Assembly: GCA_020635395.1 (NCBI GenBank)
Contig: JACJZV010000001.1
Coordinates: 647,545-711,544 of the forward strand
Direction: 5' to 3'
DNA: 64,000 nucleotides
Source of the DNA: Flavobacteriales bacterium
GTDB taxonomy: Bacteria > Bacteroidota > Bacteroidia > NS11-12g > UBA9320
The notes beneath the pieces were generated by a model. It ran no database searches. It had not been told where the DNA came from and saw nothing but the letters and a program-made list of their open reading frames with translations. The translations under genes were made by a program, and so were the position numbers. Shown here piece by piece: positions 1 to 52,101 of the stretch; the stretch's first letter is position 1; every line of letters starts with the position of its first letter.

Positions 1-150
1 AAAAGTAACTCTATTTTTCAACTATTTCAAAAAAGTTGCAATTTTAATCTTCTTATTATCAGCGAGTTAATTGTGTTTTGTTTTTGAGGTAAAAATCTAA
101 AATAGCGTTGAGGGTAGTTGTGCAACAGCTACCCGTGTTAGCAGTAGCAA
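1..150. repeat. Cassette-associated repeat A1. It is about 98% identical to 44683..44832 and lies immediately 3' (minus-strand sense) of the beta-lactamase gene
   Basis: Direct comparison of 1..150 with 44683..44832 shows only about 3 mismatches. It carries the internal 10-bp motif GTTGTGCAAC (117..126) and the terminal motifs cagctaccc and gttagcRgtag. Confidence 0.8.
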
Positions 151-153
151 TTC

Positions 154-960
154 TCATCTATCAGTTAGTTTGAGGTCGTTAAGGATTAAATAAACAATGT
201 CTATTCGAGCATTTGCAAAGTCCTTATTGTTTAAGTCAGCCGATTGAATGCAGTTAGCGAAATAATAAACTTTGTCTTTATTCTCAAGATAGCCAACATA
301 CCACCCAATATCTTTATTGTCTTGTCCGCCCCAACCAGTTTTTGCTCTAATTACATAATTCAATGTGTCCTTTGCAATCATTATATTTTTAACAATATCC
401 ATTGAACGCTTTGAAAAGGGAAGTTGGTTGTCGTGAAGTCGTTTTAAAAAGTCAATTTGTTGTTTGGGAGAAACACGAAGTCCACCAGTAAGCCAAAACT
501 TGTCTATGCCACCTGAAGTGTCAACGTTTCCATAGTTTGCTTTATCAAGCCAGTATTTCATTTGTTGTCCGCCAACTCGTTTTGCAAGTTCTTGATAATA
601 CCAAACTGTAGAATTTTTGAAAGCGGTCTTTAAGTCGTGGTCGCTATTCCAGTTTGGGTTTTGTCGGGTTACACTGTCCCAAGGAATTACAAAGTTCTCG
701 TCTTTAATTACTCCTGTCTCAAGTCCGATAAGCGAGTTACAAATTTTATAAGTCGAGGCAGGTGAAAAAGTTTGCTCGAATTGGTCTTTGTTGTAAAAAA
801 CATATTTGTCGTCTTGTGGGTCGTAAAGAACGAAAGAACCGCCAACATTAAATTGGTCGTAATATTTTTTAAAGTCGTCACGAATTTCTACCACCTGCTT
901 TTGCTTACAAGCTGTTAGTCCGAGAACCATTAAAGTCAAAATTATTATTGTCTTTTTCAC
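154..960 (-). CDS. Class D (OXA-family) beta-lactamase, lipoprotein-type signal peptide
   Basis: The 268-aa product has a lipoprotein-like N-terminus (LTAC). It has the class D active-site motifs STYK (S-x-x-K), STV (S-x-V), YGN and KTGWG plus a downstream W. Likely GTG start. Confidence 0.8.
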   Translation of the reverse strand: MKKTIIILTLMVLGLTACKQKQVVEIRDDFKKYYDQFNVGGSFVLYDPQDDKYVFYNKDQFEQTFSPASTYKICNSLIGLETGVIKDENFVIPWDSVTRQNPNWNSDHDLKTAFKNSTVWYYQELAKRVGGQQMKYWLDKANYGNVDTSGGIDKFWLTGGLRVSPKQQIDFLKRLHDNQLPFSKRSMDIVKNIMIAKDTLNYVIRAKTGWGGQDNKDIGWYVGYLENKDKVYYFANCIQSADLNNKDFANARIDIVYLILNDLKLTDR

Positions 961-964
961 TGTC

Positions 965-1045
965 GTTATATTGTTACTGCTAACGTTTTGCAGCTACCCG
1001 AAGGGCGGGGCTTTCGGAGCACTAATCTGTCAAGCTACGATAATG
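965..1045. repeat. Cassette-associated repeat C1 (module family C)
   Basis: The modules ttacYgcYaacgKtt, gcagctaccc and gggcgggKtttcggagcac are shared with 45270..45340 and 42605..42660. On the minus strand it reads GGGTAGCTG..GTTAGCAGTAA about 15 bp before the beta-lactamase start. Confidence 0.6.
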
Positions 1046-1050
1046 TTTAT

Positions 1051-2844
1051 TTATTGTACAACTGTTCCAATTCCCACTTCAGCCCCCGCTTTTGGCAAGG
1101 TGCTGTTAGCACCCGTTTTTATTTCTGTTAATTTGTCAACCAGGTCTTTCGGGAACATATTTAGTTTTCTTAATGCTTTAAACAAGGTCTTAAAATTAAT
1201 AATTGTGCTTGTGAAAATATTATTATAAACTTCATTCAATATCGTTTTTCCTCGTCTGTTCAATAACCATTTCGGATATAATAAAATTGTCTCACCAACA
1301 AATGACACTTCAATTCTTTCTGTTTCAGTCGCTGGGTCGAAATCAGGAAAGTATTTTTTTAATTCAGGTTCTACTATAGATATTATAGCGTCTGCGACTT
1401 TCTGTAAAGTTTCAGCAGGAAGCGATTTTAATTTGTATTCTTCGCCTACTGATAGCTTCAAACCCTCAACAGCTGGATTCTTTTCCTTGTCAATTAGTGC
1501 GGCATAAACAAGGATTGGATCAGCTAAATAATTTTCAATACTATATCTGTCTATTTTATAGACACCGTCAGATACGGCATTACCAGTGTCTGCGTCAATT
1601 AGTCCTTGAACAATATTTACTAATCCTGATTCTTGTAGCTTATTTACCCAATTCTGAACAACATCTTTGCCGCCTGATTTGTCTTTCGTAGATGCTGGAA
1701 TAAATACTAATGGAATATTTGCATCGATTTGATTTTCTGTTGTAAGTTGATTGTAAGCAAATGAATAAAATGAAACATCATCGTTGTCTTCAACAAGAAA
1801 ATACTTAGTTCCTTCACCTACATAAACCAATCCTGCTGTCAAGAGTGAAACAGAATGATTTTTTGAAGGGGATTTTCTAATTCGAGGTTCAACTCGTGAC
1901 ATTTCATAAATTGAATTATTGGGTGCAAGAATAACTGTTGAAGGAGAGTGGGTGGTCATTATTACTTGGACTCCAAATTTGTCAACAAGAACATTTTTGA
2001 TAACATTTAAAAACTGTTGAGACATTGATGGGTGCAGATGAGCATCAGGTTCGTCAAGTAATAATAATTTTGGAAATACTTTTTTTTCTTGGGAGTTGTA
2101 CAAATAAAACACTAATGAAATAAGTACTTTTTCTCCTGAAGACAAGTCATTAAAATTTATTTCCTCGTTTAATATTTGATGAGTAAGTTTTAATTGAAAG
2201 CCATCTCGAATTCCATTGTTTGAAGGGTCATTAACATCAAATGGTAATTTTGATTCTTTAATAATTTCTTTTAAAACAACCCACGGTTTTTCCCCGATTG
2301 ATTTTTTTATATTTTCTTCCGTTTCGTGTTTAGCCTGCAGTTCTATTTCGGATAACCTGTAATTATAAAAAACTTCACCAATCTTTTGACTTAGTTGGCT
2401 TTCCTGCTCAATTAATATCTCAGGAAAATATTCGTAAAATTCTTCTTTCGTTATGACATTGAATTGTTTCCCTGTTTTCTTAATAATTTCTTGGCATGCC
2501 CAAAACATTTTAATTTGTCCTTCTTGGTTTCTTTGATAGTTGCCACCTTTAAAGTTATTATAGTAACCATCCATCTGTTGCTGAATGGTAGAAAGATTAA
2601 CGTGTCCCGTATTTTGTAGTTGCCACTCTCCCTTAAGAAAAGTAACCTCATCTGGTTTGATGGATTTCCCTGTTATAACAACTCTTTCGGTAGTTCCTTG
2701 TTTATTGATAATCGTATTATGAATTAAATCTAATAGTTGCGATTTACCAGTTCCATTAGGTCCAGTTATTACAACGAAGTCAGGAATGTCTGTCCAGTTA
2801 AAACTTGTAATTGATTTGTATTTTTTGTCGAATTTTATTTCCAT
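1051..2844 (-). CDS. OLD-family ATP-dependent endonuclease (ABC-type ATPase plus C-terminal Toprim). Candidate anti-phage defence gene
   Basis: Walker A GPNGTGKS, Walker B LLLLDEPDAHLHP, a C-terminal Toprim-like LVEDNDD and IDADTG, and single-gene organisation. The start is trimmed from 2901 to the internal Met (MEIKFDK) at 2844. Confidence 0.7.
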   Translation of the reverse strand: MEIKFDKKYKSITSFNWTDIPDFVVITGPNGTGKSQLLDLIHNTIINKQGTTERVVITGKSIKPDEVTFLKGEWQLQNTGHVNLSTIQQQMDGYYNNFKGGNYQRNQEGQIKMFWACQEIIKKTGKQFNVITKEEFYEYFPEILIEQESQLSQKIGEVFYNYRLSEIELQAKHETEENIKKSIGEKPWVVLKEIIKESKLPFDVNDPSNNGIRDGFQLKLTHQILNEEINFNDLSSGEKVLISLVFYLYNSQEKKVFPKLLLLDEPDAHLHPSMSQQFLNVIKNVLVDKFGVQVIMTTHSPSTVILAPNNSIYEMSRVEPRIRKSPSKNHSVSLLTAGLVYVGEGTKYFLVEDNDDVSFYSFAYNQLTTENQIDANIPLVFIPASTKDKSGGKDVVQNWVNKLQESGLVNIVQGLIDADTGNAVSDGVYKIDRYSIENYLADPILVYAALIDKEKNPAVEGLKLSVGEEYKLKSLPAETLQKVADAIISIVEPELKKYFPDFDPATETERIEVSFVGETILLYPKWLLNRRGKTILNEVYNNIFTSTIINFKTLFKALRKLNMFPKDLVDKLTEIKTGANSTLPKAGAEVGIGTVVQ

Positions 2845-2861
2845 AGTTGTCTGTCTTAAAA

Positions 2862-2930
2862 TGGCAGCTAACATCCCTATATGCCCAATACAATAGTCCA
2901 ATTGTGCATATTTCCATTATCTATGCAACA
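2862..2930 (-). promoter_or_regulatory. Conserved array-head element H1. It is about 80% identical to 51812..51880 and placed about -18 to -86 relative to the first gene of array 1
   Basis: The blocks tagataatggaaatatgc, attgtattgggcatata and ggatgtta are shared with H2 at the same distance from the start codon of the first gene of array 2. It contains GTTAGCTGCC. Confidence 0.5.
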
Positions 2931-3326
2931 ATACATGCGACGCTGAAGATGTGGCTTCACCGCCAAACTCACACGGTCATGAGTTGTCTCATTCATCTGT
3001 CAAAAATATCTTTTTTCATAATAAATCCAAGCCTCTCCTTAATGACTTGTTGGTGGGTATTGCTAATTTTTTAAAGTGATGGTATAAAATTCCAATTTAC
3101 CCAACTCTATAAAGTCAATCGCACAAATCTTGATAAAGATTAAACGCTTTAAAATCAGCACACTAAATCCGTTATACCCATTTTCAAACGTTTTCAAGTG
3201 TTTTTATACGTATCTAAATGTTTTAAAAACCGATGGCACAAAATACCGCCCCAATCTTTGCAGTGTCGGAAATGGTTAAAACCCCACACCGACTTTTTTA
3301 AAGTAACATATTAATTTTTTAAACAC

Positions 3327-3665
3327 ATGAACACACTAAGAAACAGCGTACGATTGACAGGTCATTTGGGTGCTAACCCTGAGGTAAAAGAAGTAGCGGG
3401 CGGTAAAAAAATAGCTCGGTTTACGCTGGCCACCAACGAAACCTACCGCAAACAAGACGGCGAAAAAGTGACCGAAACCACCTGGCATCAGTTGTATGCC
3501 TGGGGAAAAACGGCTGAAATTGCCGAAAAATACCTCAAAAAAGGGCAAGAAATAAGCATTGAAGGCAAACTTACCAACCGCACTTGGGAAGACGAAAACG
3601 GCCACAAACGCAACATTACCGAAGTGCAGGTAAACGAGGTAATGATGTTTGGCAAAAAGGATTGA
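3327..3665 (+). CDS. ssb: Single-stranded DNA-binding protein (short form)
   Basis: The 112-aa product has an OB-fold SSB signature (TGHLGANPEV, FTLATNETYR, TTWHQLYAWGKTAE). Confidence 0.8.
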   Translation: MNTLRNSVRLTGHLGANPEVKEVAGGKKIARFTLATNETYRKQDGEKVTETTWHQLYAWGKTAEIAEKYLKKGQEISIEGKLTNRTWEDENGHKRNITEVQVNEVMMFGKKD

Positions 3666-3776
3666 GGCTTTTCGATTTTTTTTTGAACCATTAAGGCATT
3701 GAGGTAGTTAAGTCTGCGGATAAAATCTTATTGTACCTTAAAGCCTTAATGGTTTAGAACATTTAAGCTTTAAAAT

Positions 3777-4271
3777 TTATTCACTTCCCAATTTAAGCTC
3801 CTGCAACCGATTTATCAAGTTTTGGCCAAAAACTCCGGTGGCTATTACCACTCCGGCAGAGTCCACCAAATAGTTTTGAGGCAGGTAGTGGGGCAATTTC
3901 ATTTGGGTTAATAGCGGACTATCCCATTTGGCAGTGTCTATGGCATGTGTCGGCCATGTTATTCGGTCGTTTCTTATGGCTTTTTGCCACACCAAACTAT
4001 CGGTATCCAATGCGATGCTCACTATTTCAAAACCGTTTCCGTTTTTAAAGTTGGTGGTTTTGTATTGCTGATAGATGGTGTTTAATTCTCCGTTTTGTAT
4101 GCGGCATGGCAAACACCACGTACCCCAAAATTCTACCAAAATGAGTTTGCCTTTTATGCTGTCGGAAGCAATTTGATAATGCGTTTTTAGAGATTGAAAA
4201 TCGAAGGAGTGTTGGTTGTTTTGTGAAAAACTAAATAGCACTAAAAGCGGTATGACTGCCAACTTTTTCAT
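3777..4271 (-). CDS. TlpA-like thioredoxin-family thiol:disulfide oxidoreductase, secreted
   Basis: Signal peptide, a WCLPC CxxC motif, and about 160 aa. Confidence 0.7.
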   Translation of the reverse strand: MKKLAVIPLLVLFSFSQNNQHSFDFQSLKTHYQIASDSIKGKLILVEFWGTWCLPCRIQNGELNTIYQQYKTTNFKNGNGFEIVSIALDTDSLVWQKAIRNDRITWPTHAIDTAKWDSPLLTQMKLPHYLPQNYLVDSAGVVIATGVFGQNLINRLQELKLGSE

Positions 4272-5575
4272 TACAATCTTACAATGTCGGCACCGATAGC
4301 ATTCAACCGATGCTCGATGTTTTGATAGCCACGGTCTATTTGCTCAATGTTGTGAATGGTGCTGACCCCGTCGGCACTCATGGCGGCAATAAGTAGTGAA
4401 ACTCCTGCACGAATGTCGGGCGATGTCATTTGTATGCCTTTTAAATTTATGCGTCTGTCAAGCCCCATAACCGTTGCCCGGTGCGGGTCGCACAATATTA
4501 TTTGAGCACCCATGTCAATTAGGCTATCCACAAAAAATAAGCGGCTTTCAAACATCTTTTGATGTATCAACACATTGCCTTTTGCCTGCGTACACATTAC
4601 CAAGATAACACTCAACAAGTCAGGCGTTAGGCCAGGCCAAATAGCATCGGCAATGGTCATCATGCTGCCATCTATAAAACTTTCTATTTCGTAGTGTTCA
4701 TTATTAAACACCCGAATGTCGTCGTTTATTAATTCAAAATGCACACCTAATCGGCGGAAAGTTTCAGGGATTATTCCTAATTCCTTGTATTGCACATTTT
4801 TGATGGTTATGTCGGAATTGGTAAGAGCGGCCATGGCCATAAAACTGCCTATTTCAATCATATCGGGCAGCAAAGTGTGCGTGCATCCACCCAAATAATC
4901 AACCCCCTCAATGGTTAATAAATTTGAACCTACACCCGAAATTTTGGCTCCCATGCTGTTAAGCATTTTGCACAACTGTTGCAAATAGGGTTCGCAAGCG
5001 GCGTTGTATATGGTGGTAGTGCCTTTGGCCATGCTGGCGGCCATCACAATGTTGGCCGTTCCGGTCACCGATGCTTCATCCAGCAGCATATAGGTTCCGG
5101 TAAGTTTTTCGGCTTCTATCTCGTAAAAATTCTCATCGGGTAAAAAAGTAAATTTTGCACCCAAATTTTGAAACCCGATAAAGTGGGTGTCCAATCTTCG
5201 TCGGCCAATTTTATCACCACCGGGACTTGGGATATAACCTTTGCCAAAACGTGCCAACAAAGGTCCAATAATCATAACCGAACCCCGAATGCTTTTTGCT
5301 GTTTTTCTGAATTCGGCTGAGTTTAGATAGTCAAGGTCAATATTGTTTGATTCAAATCGGTAGTCGTTTTCGTTTAATTTTTCTACCGATACACCAAGAC
5401 CCCGCAACAGTTCAATAAGCCGGTTTACATCTCGAATGTTAGGAATGTTTTTTATAACAATTTCTTCGGGAGAAAGAAGCACAGCCGAAAGCACCTGAAG
5501 TGCCTCGTTTTTAGCTCCTTGCGGAATAATTTCGCCTTTAAGTTTTTTGCCTCCGGTTATTTTAAACGTTCCCAT
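4271..5575 (-). CDS. murA: UDP-N-acetylglucosamine 1-carboxyvinyltransferase
   Basis: 434 aa with an N-terminus (MGTFKITGGKKLKGEI..QGAKNEAL) typical of MurA/EPSP-fold enzymes. Confidence 0.85.
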   Translation of the reverse strand: MGTFKITGGKKLKGEIIPQGAKNEALQVLSAVLLSPEEIVIKNIPNIRDVNRLIELLRGLGVSVEKLNENDYRFESNNIDLDYLNSAEFRKTAKSIRGSVMIIGPLLARFGKGYIPSPGGDKIGRRRLDTHFIGFQNLGAKFTFLPDENFYEIEAEKLTGTYMLLDEASVTGTANIVMAASMAKGTTTIYNAACEPYLQQLCKMLNSMGAKISGVGSNLLTIEGVDYLGGCTHTLLPDMIEIGSFMAMAALTNSDITIKNVQYKELGIIPETFRRLGVHFELINDDIRVFNNEHYEIESFIDGSMMTIADAIWPGLTPDLLSVILVMCTQAKGNVLIHQKMFESRLFFVDSLIDMGAQIILCDPHRATVMGLDRRINLKGIQMTSPDIRAGVSLLIAAMSADGVSTIHNIEQIDRGYQNIEHRLNAIGADIVRL

Positions 5576-5581
5576 TTCTGC

Positions 5582-6253
5582 CTATCTGCGTTTAAAGTTT
5601 TTATTGTTGTTTCGGTTACCCCCGTTGTTGTTATTGTTTTTATTGTTGTTTTTCTTTACTTTATTTTTTGATTTTCCATTTTTGTTTCTAACTCGGTTTA
5701 CCTCAATATGAATCTGCAAATCATCTTCCGTCAGTTTTAATTGTCCTTTCGACAAGGTTCGCAAATGCTCAATTACGGCTATTTTGTCAAGGTTTTCATC
5801 ATTCCAGTTTCTTGATGAGTTTACCATAAAACTGGCGATATAGTTGATAAAAGCAGTTTGAATTTCTTTGTCTTTTATGTCTAACGCCTGCTCTACCATT
5901 GTTTGTAGATTGCGGCCATAAAAACGAAATTTTATGAGCTCATCTTTATATGGAATTGGTCGTGGCTTTTGCTCAATATGCTCGCGAACAGGCATGTTGT
6001 ATTCTGTGTCAACATCCAGTTTATAATCGCTGATAATGTATAGGTGATCCCAAAGTTTTTGTTTGTAATCTTCCAATGATTTTACCTCTGGGTTAAGGTT
6101 AATCATCACCTGAATCAATGTGTTAGCAAGCTCAGTGCGTTTGGCCTTATCTGGCAAATTGCAAACGTGCGTTACCATTTCTTGAAATGAGCGTCCATAC
6201 TCAGAAATGGTTAAAGGCTCCATTTGGGTATTATAATCCATGTTGTGTTCCAT
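5582..6253 (-). CDS. DUF4290-family protein with a C-terminal basic Asn/Lys-rich low-complexity tail
   Basis: Conserved Bacteroidetes family found next to murA. The tail is KNKVKKNNNKNNNNNGGNRNNNKNFKRR. Confidence 0.6.
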   Translation of the reverse strand: MEHNMDYNTQMEPLTISEYGRSFQEMVTHVCNLPDKAKRTELANTLIQVMINLNPEVKSLEDYKQKLWDHLYIISDYKLDVDTEYNMPVREHIEQKPRPIPYKDELIKFRFYGRNLQTMVEQALDIKDKEIQTAFINYIASFMVNSSRNWNDENLDKIAVIEHLRTLSKGQLKLTEDDLQIHIEVNRVRNKNGKSKNKVKKNNNKNNNNNGGNRNNNKNFKRR

Positions 6254-15075: not shown

Positions 15076-15101
15076 AGCCCCATCCTAAAAGGATGGGGCT
15101 T
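15076..15101 (+). terminator. Hairpin downstream of the 13776..14954 gene
   Basis: aagccccatcctaaaaggatggggctt stem-loop with a weak T-run. Confidence 0.4.
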
Positions 15102-41851: not shown

Positions 41852-41977
41852 ATTATTGTATTTTAAAATTAACTATTTACACCAATTTGCCATTCGCAAT
41901 ATAGTTTTATTAAGTCACTCGATTTCAAATTTTTTTTGGTAGATTTTAAGATAACTGTTCTGCTCAGGTTGCAAGCT

Positions 41978-42020
41978 CCTCCTTATGGGGAGAGCCGCCT
42001 ACTCGTTTGGCAGCTACCCT
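41978..42020. repeat. Module W/Y copy (cctccttatggggagagccgcctactcg..cagctaccc) at the distal end of array 2
   Basis: The same 25-bp W module terminates the B elements at 46264, 47782, 48583 and 49305. Confidence 0.6.
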
Positions 42021-42601
42021 TCTTTTATCATTTTATAGATATTCGATTGATTAAACTGTTCTCTCCATTTCTCAATTCTATCAGTCTCACTTTCAATTTT
42101 TTGAATCTGAAATGATTCCACAAAACCAATTTTTAACCGAATTTCTTTTCCACCTTCATCTAATGGTATTTGAACAAAACAATCATGCTCATCACAAGTA
42201 ATTTTTGACTTAATTAAAGCTGAATCAATTTTGTTTGACAAGAATTCTTTTCCAAATTCCATTTGATAGGATAGCACTTTTAACGAATCTATTGTATTGT
42301 TACTGGTGTATATTGAATCTAATGATTGACGAGACAATTTGTGTTCTCCTAATCGTTTGTATATCTCGTATCTTAACAGGTTTGCCTTTTCATTTACTTG
42401 CATAACACAAAGGCCACAGGTGCAATAACCACACGTTTCAGCTTCCGTTATTTGCTTCAATGCTTTTTCGTTTTTTCCCTTAGTAACGTTTTTCTCTGCT
42501 TTATCAAGTAACATAAATGAATTCTGACCATAGCTCAACTGATAAAATACTATGAGTGTCACTATGGCGAAGGATCTGAGATATTTTACTTCTATTTTCA
42601 T
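42014..42601 (-). CDS. Hypothetical secreted protein (cassette-like array gene)
   Basis: Signal peptide. No recognised domain. Confidence 0.4.
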   Translation of the reverse strand: MKIEVKYLRSFAIVTLIVFYQLSYGQNSFMLLDKAEKNVTKGKNEKALKQITEAETCGYCTCGLCVMQVNEKANLLRYEIYKRLGEHKLSRQSLDSIYTSNNTIDSLKVLSYQMEFGKEFLSNKIDSALIKSKITCDEHDCFVQIPLDEGGKEIRLKIGFVESFQIQKIESETDRIEKWREQFNQSNIYKMIKEG

Positions 42602-42604
42602 TTT

Positions 42605-42660
42605 TTTAATTTCTAAGACGTTTTAGGGCTTTGTGTTCAGGCAGTTTCGCGGGCCATTGG
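42605..42660. repeat. Module C copy (cgttttagggctttgtgttcaggcagtttcgcggg)
   Basis: About 75% identical to 45293..45328 and 985..1022. Confidence 0.5.
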
Positions 42661-42697
42661 GGTGATTTAACCAGTGAACCACGGTAGGTGTTGTGAG

Positions 42698-43438
42698 TTA
42701 TTTTAACTTCTTAAATACATAATCCCAGTCTTTATAAGTCCAATCATTTTCACCGATAAATTCATGGTCCGCACATTCATAAATTTCATTTACATTGAAA
42801 ATCTGATTATTTTCTCTTGCTTCATCCCAAAGGTTCATTAGCCCAGATTTATCCTTTATTTTTTCAAACTTATTTTTAACATTTTTAAAACAAACTAAAT
42901 CTCCAAACTCTGAATTTCCACATGGATGATAATTTGAGTATTTACAGGATATACAGGTTTTAATTTCATAATTTTCAGGGAGCGTCTTTTGCATATCAAT
43001 CATAAGATATTCAAAATTATACATATTCCTTGCAAATAAATTCTCTCCAAAAACAGTCTTAAAAGTTGCTTCTTTTATAACCAACTCAACACCGTAATCT
43101 TTTTTATTTTCAATACTTTTTTCCAATTTTAAAATCAGTTCGCCATTAAAATTATTCTTTAAGTGGCCAATGATTATAGGTATCTCAATTTCTAATTCAA
43201 AATTTGTTAACTCATTGTAAGAATTAAATTCAAAATTACCCTTAGTTTCTTTTGTTTCTAATGACTCAAACTCACGTCCTTCAAAGATTGTATTCCTTAA
43301 TTCTAATCTTAAATTGCTTCCATGCGAAATAACCTCAGATTTGAGCGAACCGAATTTGTCAGTATATTTTACGAGATATTTTTTTAAACACATGCTCTTA
43401 CTCTTTATTTTTCTGGCATTAACTATACTGTAAAACAC
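42698..43438 (-). CDS. Hypothetical protein, AT-rich (cassette-like array gene)
   Basis: ORF only. Confidence 0.4.
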   Translation of the reverse strand: MFYSIVNARKIKSKSMCLKKYLVKYTDKFGSLKSEVISHGSNLRLELRNTIFEGREFESLETKETKGNFEFNSYNELTNFELEIEIPIIIGHLKNNFNGELILKLEKSIENKKDYGVELVIKEATFKTVFGENLFARNMYNFEYLMIDMQKTLPENYEIKTCISCKYSNYHPCGNSEFGDLVCFKNVKNKFEKIKDKSGLMNLWDEARENNQIFNVNEIYECADHEFIGENDWTYKDWDYVFKKLK

Positions 43439-43689
43439 GGAGAAGCCAAATCATCTAAACGTACTTTATTTAAAATTCTGTACGAATTTCTCCTCTTCAG
43501 TGCATGGTGTAAATATAGTTCGAAAGATAAGAAATTGATTGTCAATTTGATATAAATTATTTCCGTCTGGAACAGGTGCATCTAAATCGGGGAAGCCACT
43601 ATTCGGCGACGTCGCCAACATTGCTATTATTATCACAAAAGGTCAAGTTAGCACGTGTCCTCCAGTGGTGGAAACAGCCGTATTCTATA

Positions 43690-43775
43690 CCCCAATCCCG
43701 ATAGCTATCGGGATTGGGGTGAGAGGTACACTCTCATCATTTATGGGGAGAGCCGCCTACTTGATTATGTGCTGT
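43690..43775. repeat. Composite repeat made of a perfect 30-bp palindrome V (ccccaatcccgatagctatcgggattgggg), then a truncated B 3' half, then the W module
   Basis: The palindrome was read directly. The gaggtacactctcatcatttatggggagagccgcctacttg part matches the B-element 3' end. Confidence 0.7.
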
Positions 43776-43782
43776 TATTTTT

Positions 43783-44511
43783 TTATTCATATGGTTTCCA
43801 GTTTTTGTCTTTGGGTTCCTTGTAATTTGCAGGTCTTACATTTCGCTTCATTTCTTCATCACAAGCTCCGAACTCAATAAAGTTTTTTTGTGCCTGTCTT
43901 AACGAAATTGTGTTTGCTCCACCTTCATAATATGGGTCGTCAAGTTGGATTGGGTCATCTTCCCAAAAGCATACAGGGCAAATATCATAAGTTCCATTTG
44001 GTTTCTCCGTAAACGTTTTATGTCCACAACAAGGACAAGCAAATTTTGAATTAACTGTCAATATTAGTAATGCCTTTTCCAATGCATCTTTGTCAAAACC
44101 GATTGATGGTCTTGTTGCAACCCAGCGTTCTTTTATATACTCTGGCAATGCGTTTATTGATTGGTCATCATCAATAATAACATAGTTCTGTCCCTCTCCT
44201 TTTTTTTCAACCCATTCTTTAATTTCGGTTCCTCTGTCTAATAATTGACTTATTTCTGTTTTGTTATTTAGTTTTGATATTGTTTCAAAATTCAATCCTC
44301 TTAATCTAAAAATCTCTTTCCATTTAGTTTCGTCATAATTTATTCTATGAGTTGTTGTCAAAACTATCGAAGCATTTGTCCTTTTGTGAAGGATTAATAA
44401 GTTTTCAAGTGCTTTTTTATTTAGTTTCATAAATCCGTCAGAATATATTTCTGCCTGTCGCCAAGTAGGTGTCGTTTCCAAAACTCCGTCTATGTCTAAA
44501 AGTATTGTCAT
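43783..44511 (-). CDS. HAD-like hydrolase domain fused to a cysteine-rich CPCC domain
   Basis: N-terminal DxD HAD motif (LLDIDGVL) and a C-terminal CPCCGHKTF...CPVCFWEDD cysteine-rich CPCC-type module. Confidence 0.5.
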   Translation of the reverse strand: MTILLDIDGVLETTPTWRQAEIYSDGFMKLNKKALENLLILHKRTNASIVLTTTHRINYDETKWKEIFRLRGLNFETISKLNNKTEISQLLDRGTEIKEWVEKKGEGQNYVIIDDDQSINALPEYIKERWVATRPSIGFDKDALEKALLILTVNSKFACPCCGHKTFTEKPNGTYDICPVCFWEDDPIQLDDPYYEGGANTISLRQAQKNFIEFGACDEEMKRNVRPANYKEPKDKNWKPYE

Positions 44512-44682
44512 TCTGTTTTGTGTCGGTCTTTATAATAGCACATAACTTTTTGCCGCTTGCCGCAGTGGGGGATTTCGAAGCACTTCACTTTCAACCAAGC
44601 ACAAATGTTGATAGAATCACAGCACTTGATTTAACCACGTCAACCCCCATTGCGGCAAACGACTGTGCCTGTTGCACAACTC
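44512..44682. repeat. ORF-less structured spacer element with a 12-bp inverted repeat (ccgcaGtggggg / cccccaTtgcgg) and module Z (atttcgaagcac)
   Basis: Read directly. No credible ORF. It lies between repeat A2 and the CPCC gene. Confidence 0.5.
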
Positions 44683-44832
44683 AAAAGTAACTCTATTTTT
44701 CAACTATTTCAAAAAAGTTGCAATTTTAATCTTCTTATTACCAGCGAGTTAATTGTGTTTTGTTTTTGAGGTAAAAATCTAAAATAGCGTTGAGGGTAGT
44801 TGTGCAACAGCTACCCGTGTTAGCGGTAGTGT
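44683..44832. repeat. Cassette-associated repeat A2, about 98% identical to 1..150
   Basis: Direct comparison. It is bounded by the inverted 10-mers GTTGCACAAC (44671..44680) and GTTGTGCAAC (44799..44808). Confidence 0.85.
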
Positions 44833-45267
44833 TTACGTCATGTGTTTAAGGAAAAGTGTAATGGTTTCATATGTCAATTCGTTATCCTTGATTATATAGT
44901 TGTCAAACCAGTCGTTGTTACTTAGTGTTTGTGCTACCAACCAAGATTCTTTGCCAAGATATAAAAATCGTTTGCCGCCAACTTGTATTAACCATGAACC
45001 AAAATCCTTCTCGTGATAAGATTCTTTTGTAATCACCTTGTCTGTTAGTCGTAATAAGCAAAAGTCGAAAAGAAATTTATTCCAATTGCTTGAAACTTTT
45101 CTTTCAATGTCAAACGCATAACTTATAGCCTTGTCAATCGTATTATCAGTTGCATTGTCAACCAATTCTGCTTTTCGCCCAAATTTGTCAGTAAGAGTAA
45201 CTTTAAAAACTCCGTTCGAAATTTCGTCAATTTTAGTTGTCCAACCTGGTAGTGATTTTGTGTTCAT
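44833..45267 (-). CDS. Hypothetical protein (cassette-like array gene)
   Basis: ORF only. Confidence 0.4.
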   Translation of the reverse strand: MNTKSLPGWTTKIDEISNGVFKVTLTDKFGRKAELVDNATDNTIDKAISYAFDIERKVSSNWNKFLFDFCLLRLTDKVITKESYHEKDFGSWLIQVGGKRFLYLGKESWLVAQTLSNNDWFDNYIIKDNELTYETITLFLKHMT

Positions 45268-45269
45268 AG

Positions 45270-45400
45270 TGTCTGTCTAACATTACCGCCAACGGTTTCG
45301 GGCTTTGCGTTCGGGCGGGTTTCGGAGCACAAAGTTTCAATTTATTACTAAAGTTTATTAGAAGCACAAAGCTCCATCCCGATAGCTATCGGGATTGCAC
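45270..45400. repeat. Composite repeat made of module C (ttaccgccaacggtttcgggctttgcgttcgggcgggtttcggagcac) plus palindrome V copy (atcccgatagctatcgggatt)
   Basis: Related to 965..1045 and 43690..43719. Confidence 0.6.
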
Positions 45401-45440
45401 GTCAACCCGCATGACGCAACCCGTGTTATAGCCAGTTTTT

Positions 45441-45797
45441 CTATTCATTGGTCAACATTACTATTGTCTTATTTTTTGTCTCTGCACATTTATTTTCTGT
45501 CGGCATATTAGTTTTTATTTTCAATATGTCGTCATTTCTTTTAATGCTAAAGTTCATAACATTATAGATTGCGTCATTTAAGTAATATTCAAATAATTTG
45601 GTCGTGTCATTTCCATAATTTGCAAAAAATTCAAATCTGTAATTGTCAATCTCAGTCTGATAAACGCTATAAAAAATGTGTTCATTAGGTTCGTTTGAAA
45701 TTGTTCTCGTCACAATGAGGTTGTTCTGTTCAAAATAGGAACAGCCAACTATGAATAGTAAAAATATCAATGCATATTTTGGTATTTTTTTATTCAT
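45441..45797 (-). CDS. Hypothetical lipoprotein (cassette-like array gene)
   Basis: Signal peptide with the lipobox LFIVGCS. Confidence 0.4.
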   Translation of the reverse strand: MNKKIPKYALIFLLFIVGCSYFEQNNLIVTRTISNEPNEHIFYSVYQTEIDNYRFEFFANYGNDTTKLFEYYLNDAIYNVMNFSIKRNDDILKIKTNMPTENKCAETKNKTIVMLTNE

Positions 45798-46047
45798 ATA
45801 CTTTCGCTCCTTTAAAAATGTCTACAAATGTTGACCAGTCTGGTTTGTCCGCATTTACATTTAGTTTCATATTGTCGTAATAGCCTTGAATGTCTTCAGT
45901 AAACGCACCCAACGCTTCCAGAAAATCGGTCAAAGTTTTGTTTTCCCAATTTTCAGGATTGGCTAAAAAGTCTTTGCGTAATAAGCCAAGAAACTTAATG
46001 AAATTTTGTCTGTCCGTTACTTTAAAGTCGTTAAGTGTGTCGTTCAT
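45790..46047 (-). CDS. Hypothetical small protein (85 aa). It overlaps the next gene by 8 bp with no intervening repeat
   Basis: ORF only. It forms a two-gene unit with 45441..45797. Confidence 0.35.
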   Translation of the reverse strand: MNDTLNDFKVTDRQNFIKFLGLLRKDFLANPENWENKTLTDFLEALGAFTEDIQGYYDNMKLNVNADKPDWSTFVDIFKGAKVYE

Positions 46048-46165
46048 AAAATTGGCTATAACGTGCCAGCACTAAATGTTGTGCCACTTTTTTCACTATT
46101 TGTTGTCAGTATAAATATACAATTTTATTTCTAATTCCCTGTCTGTCAGGCATAACATTTAGTGC

Positions 46166-46292
46166 ACGTGTGTGCCGCCAATGGCAAACACCCTCCAAGT
46201 TTAGTTGAAAGGAGAGTGATAACCAATAGTTATGTTGGATTAGCTAATGAGGTGTACACTCCTCATTTATGGGGAGTTCCGCCTACTCGATT
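46166..46292. repeat. B-family structured repeat copy B1
   Basis: gtgtgccgccaatggcaaacaccctcc..aggagagtgataaccaatagttatgttggattagctaatgaggtgtacactcctcatttatggggag..cgcctactcg. Internal hairpins are ataac/gttat, ttagctaa and aatgagg/cctcatt. Confidence 0.8.
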
Positions 46293-46298
46293 ATGGGC

Positions 46299-47513
46299 TT
46301 ACAATTCAATTTTCCAAAGACCATTTTTGCCTCCGACAATTACGCTTCCCTTAGGATCGATTGCAAGGTAAAAAGCACTTTCAATGCCAGCAAATAAGTC
46401 CTTTGACCTAAAAGTATAATATTCCCCATTACTTGTCCGAATACCGAAGTCTGGATAACCCATCCAACTTGTTGTATACCAAATATTAGATTTTTCATCA
46501 ATAACTATAGAATTTGGTAATGGAATTACCGTTCCACAGTCTGGTTTTAATTTTTCATTGAAAGATTCAGATTGAATATCCAACCCTAATCCAATAAATG
46601 ATTTACTAAACCCAGGGTTTTGACCATAATGTGTACTATTATATAGATTAATACAAGGGATATTTATAACAGAATTTTTTTCGAAAACACTTCCAAATTG
46701 CTGAATACTGTCAAATGTGAAAGTTTTCCACTCATTATTTTTAATTCTAAGTAATTCAGCTTGTGAGGCTGCATTTATTCCATTACCTTTAGTTGCATAG
46801 AATCTGACCCAAACGGAGTTATCACTGGTTATAGTTATTCCATCAAGTCTTTTACCTACTGGTAGTCCATTATTTTCTGTGAATGTTAAAACATCGGAAG
46901 CTGAAATTAAACTCAATCCATTTTCCTCCCAGTTGGATCCAGGCTGAGGCTGGGTCGTATGACCTACCCAAACATTGTCAGATTGGTCAACTGCAACATA
47001 TTTCGTATGGTTATTTAGGAGACCTTCATTTTTTGAAAAGAGTTGCATTGAATTCCAGTCATATCTGCACAAACCCTTGGGAGTAGCCATCCATAATCGT
47101 CCTTTGCTGTCTTCATCAACTCCTGTAATAGTGTCTGAAGGTAATCCATCTTCTTTGCCAATATGTAACCATTTTTGTTGGGCAAAATCGAAATAATCTG
47201 CACCTTTATTCGTTCCAACCAGAATTGCCCCTGATACCTTGGAAACTGACAGATGATTAATTCGCCCGTTTGCTAAATTATGGGTTAAGTTTTCTTTTTT
47301 TTCAAAAATAGAGAAGTCGTTAAAGTTTTTACTATTCCAGCAGCTATCCCAAGTAAATTCGGACACGACAACTAGAGGTTTAGATGGTTCCTCTTTTTCT
47401 TTACAAGATAATGCCAAAATAGAAAAAGAGATAACTAAGAATGTAATTGTTTTATTCATATTTCTGTTTTTAGTTCTGACTAACGCAAAATTATGTTTCT
47501 GATTACCAAGCAA
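46299..47513 (-). CDS. Lipoprotein with two-component-regulator-propeller (Reg_prop-like) beta-propeller repeats
   Basis: Lipoprotein signal and repeated ..DG..W.GT..GL..YD blades. Confidence 0.45.
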   Translation of the reverse strand: MLGNQKHNFALVRTKNRNMNKTITFLVISFSILALSCKEKEEPSKPLVVVSEFTWDSCWNSKNFNDFSIFEKKENLTHNLANGRINHLSVSKVSGAILVGTNKGADYFDFAQQKWLHIGKEDGLPSDTITGVDEDSKGRLWMATPKGLCRYDWNSMQLFSKNEGLLNNHTKYVAVDQSDNVWVGHTTQPQPGSNWEENGLSLISASDVLTFTENNGLPVGKRLDGITITSDNSVWVRFYATKGNGINAASQAELLRIKNNEWKTFTFDSIQQFGSVFEKNSVINIPCINLYNSTHYGQNPGFSKSFIGLGLDIQSESFNEKLKPDCGTVIPLPNSIVIDEKSNIWYTTSWMGYPDFGIRTSNGEYYTFRSKDLFAGIESAFYLAIDPKGSVIVGGKNGLWKIEL

Positions 47514-47682
47514 TCACAAAGTATCATTTTTTACCTCTTTTTCAGAGGTTTTTTCGACTTCGTTGGCCTCCAAAATTAATAAAGAAAATTCAGAAATGAG
47601 AAATTGAATTAGACTCATTTCGGAATTTTTATTTTTGGATTGCCCATAACGGTGAGTGTACGCGTAGTTTGCACGTTTAGGG

Positions 47683-47816
47683 CTACACCGTGTGTGTGTG
47701 CCGCCAATGGCAAACACCCTCCAGAAAGGAGAGTGATAACCAATAGTTATGTTGGATTAGCTAATGAGGTGTACACTCCTCATTTATGGGGAGAGTCGCC
47801 TACTCGTTTGTGTGTA
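47683..47816. repeat. B-family repeat copy B2. It has an 11-bp deletion relative to B1 and is flanked by the imperfect inverted repeat ctacaccgtgtg / tgtgtgtag
   Basis: Direct comparison. Its 3' flank encodes the last 4 codons of the upstream ORF. Confidence 0.8.
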
Positions 47817-48414
47817 GTTTTTGTTCTTTATATACTTTCGTTATTTCGCTTTTTAATTCATTGTACCTTTTAGGTTCGGTCAGTTTTTTCAGTGAATTAA
47901 TTGTGATTGAGCTCTGACTTCTTTCATAGTTGTCAAGTCGATATGTTGGTAGAACATAAAAATCCCATTGCTCCATTTTTAAAGGGTCAATTGTTTTTTG
48001 GTCTTTGTGTTTTAAATGACAGAACACATAAAGGTCAGCGTGTCTTTTGGGTTCTCCACGTTGCATATTTGTTTCTGCATCCCAATATCTTGCAGGTTTA
48101 ATTGAAAATGAAATAGTCGAAAAGTTCTTTTGATTCCAACTTTGAATATAAGCGGCAGATTTGACTTCTATTTTTATTCCGTCGATAGTTGTCAAGTCAT
48201 ATGCATCCCATTCATCTCTTAAATTTTCAGGATTTAGTCCAACTGCTGTCCCGACGATAAACTCTGCAAATCTTCCGCGAGTTGCATTGCTCAAAATGTC
48301 AGAAACGCTCCAACGCCAAAAGTCCAATAGGTTAAAATTTGTTTCCTTACCATTGTCGGTAAGGGTTTCATTTCCGTTTTTGGGGCTTGCTTTTATTTCT
48401 TTGAGTTCGTTCAT
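47800..48414 (-). CDS. Hypothetical protein with a PD-(D/E)xK-like nuclease motif
   Basis: D..(x)n..IEVKS arrangement (DAYDLTTIDGIKIEVKSAAY). Weak. Confidence 0.35.
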   Translation of the reverse strand: MNELKEIKASPKNGNETLTDNGKETNFNLLDFWRWSVSDILSNATRGRFAEFIVGTAVGLNPENLRDEWDAYDLTTIDGIKIEVKSAAYIQSWNQKNFSTISFSIKPARYWDAETNMQRGEPKRHADLYVFCHLKHKDQKTIDPLKMEQWDFYVLPTYRLDNYERSQSSITINSLKKLTEPKRYNELKSEITKVYKEQKLHTNE

Positions 48415-48482
48415 TTCTAATTACACACGACGGTTCGTATATGGTGTCGTAGCATCCCGCAGGGTGCTATGTATTATATACC

Positions 48483-48618
48483 ATGTGTGTGCCGCAAATG
48501 GCAAACACTCTCCAAATTTAGCTGAAAGGAGGGTGATAACCAATAGTTATATCGGATTAGTTGATGAGGTGCACACTCCTCATTCGTGGCGAGAGCCGCC
48601 TAATGGATTGTGTGTATT
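48483..48618. repeat. B-family repeat copy B3, the most diverged
   Basis: About 85% identical to B1. Confidence 0.7.
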
Positions 48619-49047
48619 ATCTGTTAAAATTCTGTTTTTTGGAATCAGCTGATGCATTACGAGTAAAAATAATACACCTTTAGTAAAACCATTTGGAATA
48701 AACTTTACAAACGAGTCGTAAATATCAAATTGAAATCCTAATCCAGCTCCTATTATTAAAGAAATTATTATGGAAGAAATTAAGCAAACAATGCCATAAA
48801 TGCTACCAAATATTAAAGCTTTTGATAGCGATATTCCGAGATTATCTTTTGAAATATTCCTTACTAACAAATGGGTTACGAAAGCGGTAATTATTAAAAA
48901 TAAAAACTCTAAAACCATCTCATAGATGAAAAAATAGATATTGAATATTCTAGTCATTTCAAATTCGGTAAATATTAATTTTCTAATCAAATCTATTCCA
49001 ATTGAGATTAATCCAAAAAACAATATTGCTCTAAAAACCTTTGTCAT
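48580..49047 (-). CDS. Small integral membrane protein (4 TM). Its last 11 codons are encoded by the B3/W repeat
   Basis: Hydrophobic profile. The C-terminus THNPLGGSRHE is read through the repeat. Confidence 0.4.
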   Translation of the reverse strand: MTKVFRAILFFGLISIGIDLIRKLIFTEFEMTRIFNIYFFIYEMVLEFLFLIITAFVTHLLVRNISKDNLGISLSKALIFGSIYGIVCLISSIIISLIIGAGLGFQFDIYDSFVKFIPNGFTKGVLFLLVMHQLIPKNRILTDNTHNPLGGSRHE

Positions 49048-49211
49048 TCTTTACAGTTTATCTTAGTGTTATGCATACGCTGCGATTACGCATAACGGTA
49101 TAGGGTAAGAAACGTAGGGCATTTCGAAGCAATTTCCTGTTCACCGAAACGGAACTTGCTAAGAGCCCAAAACTTGCGGAAACCACTGCCCGCCCTATGT
49201 TTTATACCCAT

Positions 49212-49345
49212 TGTGCGTGCCGCCAATGGTAAACGCCCTCCAAATTTAGTTGAAAGGAAAGTGATAACCAATAGTTATGTTGGAATAGCTAAATAGGTAC
49301 ACTCTCCTCATTTATGGGGAGAGCCGCCTACTCGATTAGGAGCAT
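49212..49345. repeat. B-family repeat copy B4
   Basis: About 90% identical to B1. Confidence 0.8.
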
Positions 49346-49350
49346 CATAA

Positions 49351-49854
49351 TTATGAAATCCAAATCATTTCATTGCTTACAACTCGCCATTTTCCGAGGC
49401 GTTTTTTTAATTCAACAACATTTCCAGACGAGCTTAAGTTACCTTCGTAATATCCACAATAAACACTGGCTTTGTTTCCAGACACAATTACTTTTGAAAT
49501 ATTGAATGAAAGAAAATCAATTTCACTTTTTTCTTCGTCTGTCATATTATTGAACATTGAAATGTCCTTTACTTTGGGAGAATTCCTTTTTAGCTTATCC
49601 AATACAAATGGTAAGGATTGATTGAGAGAATCGTCTAAACTTAGAAAATAGTAGGTGGCTTTTTCTTTGGTTGCAGATGCGTTTTCTTTAAATAATGCTT
49701 TGAATGCAGCAACTTCAATTTTAACCAATGTCGTCTTTGGGATATTGTTATTCTGCAAACCCTCTTTTATATTTCCTGTCTTTTGGCTGAATACTGTGCC
49801 AGAAAGAAGTAAGAGAAGTGTCGGAAACACAAGGACTTTGAGTATTAAATTCAT
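49351..49854 (-). CDS. Hypothetical secreted protein (cassette-like array gene)
   Basis: Signal peptide. Confidence 0.4.
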   Translation of the reverse strand: MNLILKVLVFPTLLLLLSGTVFSQKTGNIKEGLQNNNIPKTTLVKIEVAAFKALFKENASATKEKATYYFLSLDDSLNQSLPFVLDKLKRNSPKVKDISMFNNMTDEEKSEIDFLSFNISKVIVSGNKASVYCGYYEGNLSSSGNVVELKKRLGKWRVVSNEMIWIS

Positions 49855-50063
49855 TTGATTGCCATTTAAATTATTTCTGTCGCATTCTAGAAAGTCAAAT
49901 TCTATCTGGTGTTGGTGTAATTGCTCCTAACGTATTCGTGTATGAGTAGTGGCGGATTTTAACCCACTAAACTATCAGATAACATCGACCTTTGATTTAT
50001 AATTTTATGTTTCTATTAAGCACCAAACCCGCTATTGCAAATGTGCTGTTAGCGGTAGTTTTT

Positions 50064-51143
50064 CTATTCTGTAAGTTCATAAACAGATATTGTTTTGTTG
50101 TCTGCCGTTAAGAAACAACCTGTCCCAACGCTGTATTCGTTTACTTTCAAAATTTCGTCTTTAAAAGCGATTTGTCCATCCGATGAAATTACCGAAAAGC
50201 CACCTTCGTCAGAAACTGTGATGAACGAATTCATTGCTCTATTGAAATACATTTTCGAACTAAGGATATTTTTGTCAACAATCTGAATTTTCTTACCTAT
50301 CTCAACATTGTCCCCGCTGATTTTGAGAAAATGAATTTCACAAGGAGAGTCTGCTGTTGAATTTTCATCTCCTTCGGTAAATGGATTATACGCAATAGCA
50401 ATAGTATCATTGTCAATCCAACATGTCGCTCTGTTTTCATGTTCCCAACCACCTATTCTCAAATCTGATATTCTATTACTTGTGATAAAATTTTCAATAT
50501 CATAGACATTATAGCAATCGTATGAACCCCAAGCCCAACCTGCACTCAAAAATTTCTTCTGATTAGGCGAAATAAAAAGTTTGCCAAAAAAATAGTCGTA
50601 TGGTCTCGGCCAAGGTAATTTGTTGTCCTCAGAATGTTTTTTATAAAAATCAATGTGTCTTTCTTCCGCCCCTTCTTCAATCAAGGATTTTGAAGCAGTC
50701 AGGATTTGTCTGGTGTCAAGATTCATGATTTGAATATGATTCCATGCTTCACCAAAAATTAAATGGGGCACTCTTTCTTGATTTTTATAAAGTACTATTG
50801 GATAAGTTGAAATGTCAGCGTGATAGTCTTCTCTCCACAAGTGCAAGGCATGATACTTGTTGGGATAATGAACAAAACCATGTCTTTTGAAGTCATTAAC
50901 TACAACTACAATTTCGTCCATTGTGTAAATTGAAGTCTTTGCTGTTAAGTCAAAACCTCCGTCTGAATATCCAAAATTGCTTTTTACTGAAAATAAATGC
51001 TTTCCCTTTTTGTCGTCCAAATTAAACCGAATGACATTACCAGAACTCATCAACATAACAACTTCATTTGACTTTGATAAAGTCGCAGTCATAATAGTTT
51101 CGTCAGTGTCAAAAGTGATGTCGTAAATTTTATTTGTTTTCAT
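50064..51143 (-). CDS. Hypothetical protein, beta-rich and possibly beta-propeller-like (cassette-like array gene)
   Basis: ORF only. Confidence 0.4.
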   Translation of the reverse strand: MKTNKIYDITFDTDETIMTATLSKSNEVVMLMSSGNVIRFNLDDKKGKHLFSVKSNFGYSDGGFDLTAKTSIYTMDEIVVVVNDFKRHGFVHYPNKYHALHLWREDYHADISTYPIVLYKNQERVPHLIFGEAWNHIQIMNLDTRQILTASKSLIEEGAEERHIDFYKKHSEDNKLPWPRPYDYFFGKLFISPNQKKFLSAGWAWGSYDCYNVYDIENFITSNRISDLRIGGWEHENRATCWIDNDTIAIAYNPFTEGDENSTADSPCEIHFLKISGDNVEIGKKIQIVDKNILSSKMYFNRAMNSFITVSDEGGFSVISSDGQIAFKDEILKVNEYSVGTGCFLTADNKTISVYELTE

Positions 51144-51317
51144 TCTAATCGTCTATTCGCTTGGTAGCTTTAAAATTACCGCTAACGGTTAGTATATGAA
51201 AAGTAGGCGATTTAGAAGCTCTAATTTTTCGGTTAAACACAAATTTTAATGCGAGCCATAACCTATGAATTTATCGCTGTTTCGCCTATTTTTTATATAC
51301 AGTGTTGTAGTGCGTTT

Positions 51318-51803
51318 TTATTCATTATTAGTTGTCGTAAACACTTGATAGAAGTATGACAGGTTATCAGGCTCTCCATTTGCAAATCGTTTAAAAGCTT
51401 TGGCAATCGGGTCGCAAACAGTTCCGTTTGGTAGTTTAATTACAATTGGCATCATATTTACTCCTTCTGGAAGGTTCGCGTCTTCTTGCTTAATCCACCG
51501 TCCATTTGCATTCTCAATCATTACTTGTCCAGAATAGCAACCAGCAACAAAAATTGTCTCAGCAAAATCGTCAACGTTCCATTCTTTACTAAAGTTGTCC
51601 AGAAATTGGTCAACAAAATTCAGCGAGTCAACTGAATAATCTAACTCAATTCCTTCGTTTTCTTTAACAGCTCCACTAAAAAACTCACTCAACCCTTTTC
51701 CATTTTCAGGGTTTGGTTCTAATTGTAAGTTTAGTCCGCGGTTTGGAAAGACTTGTTTTGGCTTTTCTTCTTTCTTTCCGAAAAGGTTTTTAAATATGCT
51801 CAT
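51318..51803 (-). CDS. Hypothetical protein. It is the first gene of array 2
   Basis: ORF only. Confidence 0.4.
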   Translation of the reverse strand: MSIFKNLFGKKEEKPKQVFPNRGLNLQLEPNPENGKGLSEFFSGAVKENEGIELDYSVDSLNFVDQFLDNFSKEWNVDDFAETIFVAGCYSGQVMIENANGRWIKQEDANLPEGVNMMPIVIKLPNGTVCDPIAKAFKRFANGEPDNLSYFYQVFTTTNNE

Positions 51804-51811
51804 CTGTTTTT

Positions 51812-51880
51812 TTTAATGCCCTATAACATCCGTATATGCCCAATACAATGTTCCTATTACGCATATTTCCATTATCTACG
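51812..51880 (-). promoter_or_regulatory. Conserved array-head element H2, about 80% identical to 2862..2930
   Basis: See H1. Same spacing from the first start codon. Confidence 0.5.
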
Positions 51881-52101
51881 AAACCAAAACAGGGTTTGAA
51901 ATTTAATGTATCCGTTTTCATTTTTTTTGGCTTCGTTCCATTCAGTCAAATATAGAAACTTTTTTTAGAAATTATCCAAAATGCCAATAGCACCTTGCGG
52001 TTTGTAACAAGGCCAAAGAAAAATGCCATTCTGTCACCATTTTAGGTTAAAAAGTGGTTGGCAAAGTAGTTGATATTGCCCAAACATTAATTCATAATCG
52101 G

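Follow-up and report, generated by a model that had tools for sequence, protein, structure and literature searches.

Two cassette arrays in the window, meaning the whole 64,000-nucleotide stretch of DNA analysed here, open with the same short element, H, which is best explained as the attI-like, array-side recombination site of an integron-type cassette platform with a Pc-like promoter lying upstream of it. Judged from the sequence, this reading is given a probability of about 0.55. By the mechanism proposed, a tyrosine recombinase of the integron-integrase kind, either encoded elsewhere in the genome or since lost, would recombine the folded repeat of a circular, unattached cassette with H, the joint falling between G and TT. 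Incoming cassettes would thereby land next to the promoter, and transcription would begin a few bases past the -7 box and read through H into the first cassettes. H could be a still-active site or a conserved relic, and with only two copies in one genome, conservation is not cleanly separable from recent common descent. Table 1 presents the coordinates of the features discussed below.

Table 1. Features of the two array heads, the arrays and their repeats (window positions unless another locus is named)
Feature	Position	Strand	Description
H1 core	2872..2923	minus	52-nt left arm of the array 1 head junction; final G of the G|TT crossover at 2872
H2 core	51827..51878	minus	array 2 head; 52 nt; crossover G at 51827
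First bases of cassette 1, array 1	2862..2871	minus	TTAGCTGCCA...; within the earlier interval, cassette-derived
First bases of cassette 1, array 2	51812..51826	minus	TTATAGGGCATTAAA; cassette-derived
P block 1	2986..3033	minus	-33 TTG (3028-3030), 19-nt gap, -7 TATTTTTG (3001-3008), then GAC..TGAATGAGAC; candidate promoter
P block 2	51935..51985	minus	-33 TTTG (51977-51980), 22-nt gap, -7 TATATTTG (51947-51954), then GACTGAATGGAAC; candidate promoter
Spacer 1, between P block and H1	2924..2985	minus	poorly conserved save ~15 nt beside H
Spacer 2, between P block and H2	51879..51934	minus	from the head alignment
Array 1, in-window part	1..2871	minus	cassette 1 ATPase (attC-like junction G at 984), cassette 2 class D beta-lactamase
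Class D beta-lactamase	154-960	minus	NCBIfam bla_class_D_main 272.9 bits, cut-off 250; discrete cassette
Array 2	41950..51826	minus	~12 cassettes; ends in a truncated repeat near 41950
Array 2 attC-like crossover G	51186, 49931, 49096, 48431, 47650, 46062, 45293, 44546, 42619	minus	
~125-nt repeat	49195-49348, 48467-48620, 47667-47820, 46150-46303, ~43660-43791, ~41950-42013		
~125-nt repeat, L015	~15095-15230, 17140-17270, 18520-18650		
MITE-like insert	1-147 and 44683-44829; L015 ~14300-14445		window copies 99% identical

The shared array heads

H occurs twice in the window, where no third copy was found. Both copies read 5' to 3' on the minus strand, the strand that also encodes the genes of the two arrays. 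The two cores are identical at 46 of 52 positions (88%) and share the consensus TAGATAATGGAAATATGC-RY-AAT-W-GGA-MY-ATTGTATTGGGCATATA-S-GGATG. With up to 3 mismatches allowed, the blocks tagataatggaaatatgc and attgtattgggcatata still have just two occurrences apiece in the window, against chance expectations of 0.14 and 0.29, respectively, and the two 200-nt heads reach a local alignment score of 47 compared with 10.2 +/- 1.6 for 1000 shuffles (maximum 18). A preliminary description of this DNA had proposed a conserved head element 5' of the first gene in both arrays, long identical blocks common to both copies, and an end 9 to 18 bp before the first start codon. The element and its blocks are real, and the distance is correct for starts at 2844 and 51803. 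The extents given for the two intervals need trimming on one side. Likeness between H1 and H2 continues through GGATG and the next TTA and then collapses, and the final 10-15 nt of the earlier intervals, which differ between the copies, are the starts of two different first cassettes and lie outside the shared element.

Within H are found a short inverted repeat (ATATGC / GCATAT), three WAT(W)GG repeats and, 6 nt before the crossover, a CATATA box; a similar box is present in the L' arms of some attC-like sites. From their sequence, we infer that these motifs may bind a recombinase. A separate observation concerns the end of the element, GGATG|TTA, which places an ATG at the crossover of each copy (2872-2874 and 51827-51829, minus strand). 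The ATG of H1 continues in frame into the ATPase ORF, and NCBI places the start of the first gene of array 1 at it (2874); the ATG of H2 leads to Met-Leu-stop. An ATG in this position is reminiscent of the short ORFs that aid cassette translation in attI1 of class 1 integrons.

The crossover between H and the first cassette was scored with a position weight matrix (PWM) built from 15 curated attC-like junctions. To its right, 14 nt score as cassette starts at both heads; H1 reaches 10.4 bits, within the top 0.02% of window positions, and H2 reaches 3.7 bits, within the top 1%. The motif GTTAGCTGCC in H1, singled out earlier for its resemblance to junction cores, proves to be the genuine cassette-start core that gives this higher score. 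To its left, 20 nt score -15.9 bits (H1) and -17.1 bits (H2), whereas genuine attC 3' arms mostly score +2 to +15 bits in leave-one-out tests, and these values rule out H as a degenerate attC 3' half. Since the left arms are unlike attC arms, H would not be a worn attC half. It would instead be a separate sequence joined to cassette 1 at the canonical crossover, and this is how an attI-type site is defined in operational terms. By its position, its G|TT end and both of its arms, H has the characters of such a putative site, namely a non-attC site at the first-cassette junction with the crossover within G|TTRRRY. The earlier proposal of an attI-like site combined with a Pc analogue survives in its first half, as H sits exactly at the first-cassette boundary and its likeness ends at G|TT; the second half must be modified, as the promoter lies outside H and no integrase is linked.

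In a global alignment of the heads, a second conserved island is found upstream of H (GGC..TTGGAT....AAAAAAG..TATWTTTGAC..TGAATGRRAC). This P block places a candidate -7 box 68-77 nt upstream of H in the two heads, and the 55-62 nt between the block and H are unalignable between them. Together, the P block, spacer and H make up a head module of ~150-190 nt that is present at the start of both arrays. The P blocks match TTTG / TAnnTTTG, the established -33/-7 promoter consensus of Bacteroidota. Comparison with this consensus had been suggested for H; a TTG or TTTG and a TAnnTTTG are indeed present with the two gap lengths of Table 1, although in the shared block upstream of H and not inside it. 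TAnnTTTG alone has 78 occurrences in the window, so the case for a promoter is that the entire block is conserved at the two heads. The P block would be a Pc-like promoter with H lying in the 5' UTR, and H would be transcribed within a leader of about 125-160 nt. The two interpretations offered at the outset, an attI/Pc arrangement or a shared promoter and 5' UTR, are then both partly true, since a promoter 5' of H makes H part of the 5' UTR. Moreover, two conserved islands separated by a diverged spacer argue for selection on H and the P block and not for even decay after duplication. One further observation was made at P block 1, inside which two independent Logan assemblies of the same strain break (2999-3033, minus strand; L002, L003 and L016) with a contig overlap of 29 nt. 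The assembly graph would therefore branch at this point, either because the block has a third copy elsewhere or because the population varies past the -7 box.

The cassettes and their attC-like repeats

The ORFs downstream of H1 and H2 are all co-directional and mostly small, and both arrays have a lower G+C content than the backbone. Array 1 continues ~6.8 kb to the left of the window, giving about 8.7 kb and about 10 cassettes in all. An integron cassette consists of one or more ORFs and an imperfect palindrome, with an inverse core (RYYYAAC), a core (GTTRRRY) and circularly permuted ends. In both arrays, attC-like ends lie between the genes, with ...ACTACCGCTAAC just past the stop codon and ...AACCG|TTAGCGGTAAT ahead of the next gene; the cores CGCTAAC / GTTAGCG are near the textbook consensus and not identical to it. 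The curated attC-like junctions number 10 in the window, with at least 6 more in locus L015.

If such units are excised and inserted as circles at G|TT, the 5' bases of a unit should complement the inverse core at its own 3' end. For 16 cassettes, the reverse complement of the 14 nt after the crossover was therefore compared with the region at the stop codons, using 100,000 permutations. The mean match to the own cassette was 10.4/14 compared with 8.2 (sd 1.05) for other cassettes (permutation p < 1e-5). The own stop-codon region was the best partner for 10 of the 16 cassettes, and 0 of the 100,000 permutations reached the observed sum. The first cassettes match their own inverse cores weakly, at 9/14 in array 2 and 8/14 in array 1. 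Several of the repeats fold as long imperfect hairpins, with z from -2.7 to -4.8. A second genomic context is available for the beta-lactamase cassette in L030, a locus of another organism, where an 87%-identical beta-lactamase stands in an array of the same repeat family but has other sequence upstream of it. The DNA homology of the two cassettes starts exactly at |TTAGCA, which independently confirms the cassette boundary. From own-end complementarity, the recurrence of the beta-lactamase cassette and the hairpins together, it follows that the units downstream of H are integron-type, circularly permuted cassettes bounded at G|TT.

Several minor features of the repeats may be recorded. The R stem of the sites (e.g. 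51174-51186 / 50040-50056) is 12 bp long, pairing ACTACCGCTAAC with GTTAGCGGTAAT, and six cassettes carry the same C x A mismatch in it, which may serve to mark strand or orientation. Directly after the inverse core of at least 9 attC-like sites is a structured repeat of ~125 nt (GAGTAGGCGGCTCTCCCCATAAATGAGGAG...TGCCATTGGCGGCACACAC), truncated copies of which terminate both arrays. It looks like either an element targeting attC-like sites or a second class of long attC. This repeat has no Rfam match, and exact-pattern scans for parts of it returned nothing real in IMG/VR or JGI metagenomes; pattern scans for the type-A repeat gave 0 matches in IMG/VR and 2 in JGI metagenomes, both by chance. 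A MITE-like insert of ~147 nt with terminal inverted repeats (TGTTGCACAACT...AGTTGTGCAACA) lies inside attC-like sites of both arrays. Logan contigs, which are 99.99-100% identical to the window (same strain, two runs), break within 4 nt of two predicted crossovers. These breaks were considered as evidence of shuffling and set aside, as the contigs are of the same strain and the breaks may be plain assembly effects. The window sequence is also present in NCBI assembly GCA_041391645.1.

Genomic setting and rival explanations

In a complete integron, intI encodes a tyrosine recombinase with an IntI-specific insertion and lies adjacent to attI. No such arrangement was found in the window and its flanks. 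The Pfam hits of called genes include no recombinase family in the window, the 9 kb to its left, or the 10-kb flanks of L030 and L040, and a PF00589-type gene is absent among the called genes of the window, L015, L001 and L012. A tblastn search with approximate IntI1 and XerD sequences against the window and 58 loci (634 kb) gave no match with an E-value below 0.5. Between the arrays lie genes of core metabolism and information processing only (gyrB, hisS, murA, ftsY and ribosomal proteins). If the repeats are counted as attC, there are at least two such sites and no nearby integron-integrase, and for want of a linked integrase both arrays are of the CALIN type and not complete integrons.

H itself was sought more widely. 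The pattern ATATGCN{9,13}ATTGTATTGGGCAT gave 8 matches in 185,579 representative genomes, all by chance in unrelated coding DNA; TATTGGGCATATANGGATGTT gave 0 matches in JGI metagenomes; and an H 17-mer gave 6 matches in IMG/VR, all by chance. These scans of large collections used exact patterns and miss diverged copies. A blastn search of plasmids and phages returned nothing relevant, and nhmmer found no match to H in the related array of L030. The sequence ATTGCGTATAGAATTTTC| of L030 was considered as an H 3' end, but its 10/18 match was judged not significant and it is probably a degenerate ORF-less cassette. Copies of H upstream of unrelated single genes, which according to the preliminary description would mark it as a generic promoter motif, did not turn up in the exact-pattern scans of representative genomes, JGI metagenomes and IMG/VR.

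On their far sides the heads adjoin ssb (H1) and grpE (H2). This pairing with housekeeping genes, already noted from the letters, is accurate for the present order, although ssb is probably not the ancestral neighbour, for in relatives Trx is followed directly by grpE. Those relatives, whose GrpE is 73-78% identical (L053, L055 and L056), have the order Aldedh - DUF4290 - murA - Trx - grpE - dnaJ with a Trx-grpE gap of 130-180 nt, and array, H and P block are all absent from the junction. A look for empty H sites in related strains had been suggested; what is found is a junction that is array-free and also without H, from which it follows that the head module came in with the arrays. In the window, an inverted Trx-murA-DUF4290 segment lies beside ssb, which is followed by P1-H1-array 1; grpE lies beside P2-H2-array 2, and Aldedh adjoins the tail of array 2. 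Seen as a break in synteny (3327-6253 and 38607-52641), the block that is contiguous in relatives is in two parts, some of it inverted, and each side has an array head. A single inversion between the heads failed to explain how the current gene order arose from that of the relatives; at least two events are needed. The ssb gene (3327-3665), which is not at the relatives' junction, may be part of the acquired DNA.

Because two heads now flank what is one Trx-grpE junction in relatives, they could be inert relics of one ancestral head that was duplicated or split in the rearrangement separating the Trx and grpE sides, with H conserved merely through recency. The lack of a linked integrase, the degenerate inverse cores of the first cassettes and the failure of exact-pattern scans to find H elsewhere would all agree with such an origin. 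Nevertheless, we regard it as unlikely. Neutral decay should be even, whereas here the spacer is unalignable beside an H that is 88% identical and a P block that is well conserved. No cassette is common to both arrays, which points to divergence by cassette turnover after any duplication. Finally, an inversion, whether site-specific or homologous, does not duplicate sequence.

The position of H in a predicted leader raises the question of a role in RNA. In that case, H would be a cis-acting RNA element in the shared 5' UTR, controlling the translation or stability of the first cassette, and would not be bound by a recombinase. Lying 68-77 nt downstream of the candidate -7 box, H would be transcribed. 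A hairpin formed by ATATGC...GCATAT is predicted in both copies, and an AC to GU change in its 5' arm keeps the pairing solely via G-U, and so in RNA. Compared with shuffles, H2 has the better fold (z -2.3), but H1 has no such advantage (z -0.5), the register of the inner stem differs between the copies, and two sequences give no real test of covariation. The ATG at the 3' end of H would suit a translational role. A known cis-regulatory RNA was dismissed, there being no Rfam hit at gathering score in the window and only chance-level hits (E > 1) around H1; Rfam contains no attC family. The likeness between the copies could stop at G|TT merely because the cassettes differ past it, yet an RNA role offers no reason for the base-exact fit of the element to the cassette boundary. 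As a replacement for the attI-like reading an RNA element is quite improbable, and as an additional property of the same sequence it is compatible with that reading and not exclusive of it.

H is very unlikely to mark one end, or the attachment site, of a bigger array-carrying mobile island whose own integrase or transposase would recognise it: H, P block and arrays are absent from the orthologous junction in relatives, and ssb, a gene often found on mobile elements, lies beside head 1 and not at that junction, but no transposase, integrase or conjugation gene was found near either H copy, the copies stand 49 kb apart in direct orientation and enclose core housekeeping genes (gyrB, hisS, murA, ftsY), and the boundary of H coincides with a cassette boundary and not with an island boundary.

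Comparison with known systems and cassette contents

The closest parallel to the attI-like reading is the attI/Pc head of integrons, e.g. attI1/Pc of class 1. As with H, this is a conserved non-palindromic site of ~50-65 nt directly 5' of the first cassette with its crossover at G|TT, and the promoter lies further upstream so that the site falls in the leader of the cassette transcript. The cassettes also correspond, with one or two ORFs, an imperfect palindrome, an inverse core ending in ...CTAAC, a core beginning GTTAG... and circularly permuted ends. The differences are that intI stands beside the site in integrons and is missing here within 64 kb plus flanks; that the same head appears twice in one chromosome; that R stems are canonically 7 bp and here 12 bp with a conserved C x A mismatch; and that the integron promoter is inside intI, whereas the candidate here is of the Bacteroidota type (-33/-7) and in intergenic DNA. 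Sites of the attI kind have been characterised for only a handful of integron classes.

As attC-flanked cassette arrays with no nearby integrase, the two arrays resemble CALINs (PMC4889954; PMC8618304). Hypothetical origins proposed for CALINs are an integrase acting in trans, loss of intI, and a rearrangement that splits an array (PMC8618304), and all of these fit the two arrays. CALINs are not defined by a head with an attI site and promoter, however, and here both arrays carry the same promoter and attI-like head, each abutting backbone genes, which is not what random splitting of an array would give. A second comparison is with the rAID-1 arrays of Bacteroidales, which share with these arrays a Bacteroidota host, long runs of co-directional, small, low-G+C genes, repetitive intergenic sequences and a conserved sequence ahead of the first gene. 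They are defined by an XerD-like recombinase gene at the 5' end of the array (bioRxiv 10.1101/471110); here ssb and grpE lie 5' of the heads, with no XerD-like match. Many of the rAID-1 genes are immunity genes, unlike the mixed contents of the present arrays (a beta-lactamase, an OLD-like ATPase, an endonuclease and DUFs), which are not recognisably immunity functions.

Integrons are reported to be rare in Bacteroidota, and attI sites to be poorly described outside class 1 (PMC9024848). A duplicated promoter and attI-like head without an integrase is not described in the literature searched. This leads to the tentative and rather doubtful suggestion of a 'distributed' integron in Flavobacteriales, in which promoter and attI-like heads at more than one chromosomal locus would be served in trans by an unlinked, possibly non-IntI, recombinase. 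The same cassette architecture is found in other Bacteroidota (L030 and L040), also without a linked integrase, which hints that an unlinked recombinase may be the rule in the lineage and not a sign of decay. If the suggestion is true, a single cell would maintain a number of cassette arrays, each expressed on its own, with genes for resistance and defence; the class D beta-lactamase cassette, which is shared across environmental Bacteroidota, would be one example. More generally, a head found twice without a linked integrase would offer a testable case for how CALINs arise and are expressed, and perhaps for their continued supply with cassettes in trans.

Turning to the contents of the arrays, most cassettes, the units of array 2 among them, have no family or only a DUF assigned. 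Chromosomal cassette arrays have been described as stores of defence genes, and the contents here fit. The first cassette of array 1 encodes an ATPase with AAA_15/AAA_21 and DUF4435. Among the contents on the minus strand are this OLD-like ATPase (1051-2844), a protein like phage T4 endonuclease IV (47800-48414), and a HAD_SAK_2 + CPCC protein (43783-44511). For the class D beta-lactamase, metagenomes supply more than 100 protein clusters with 71-89% identity, of which the few with an organism name are Bacteroidota; relatives at 80-89% identity occur in many environmental Bacteroidota metagenomes. Around the homologues in L041-L050 and L051, attC-like repeats are absent, and plasmid-borne homologues are at most 44% identical. 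In the window, then, a class D beta-lactamase is demonstrably carried on a discrete mobile unit.
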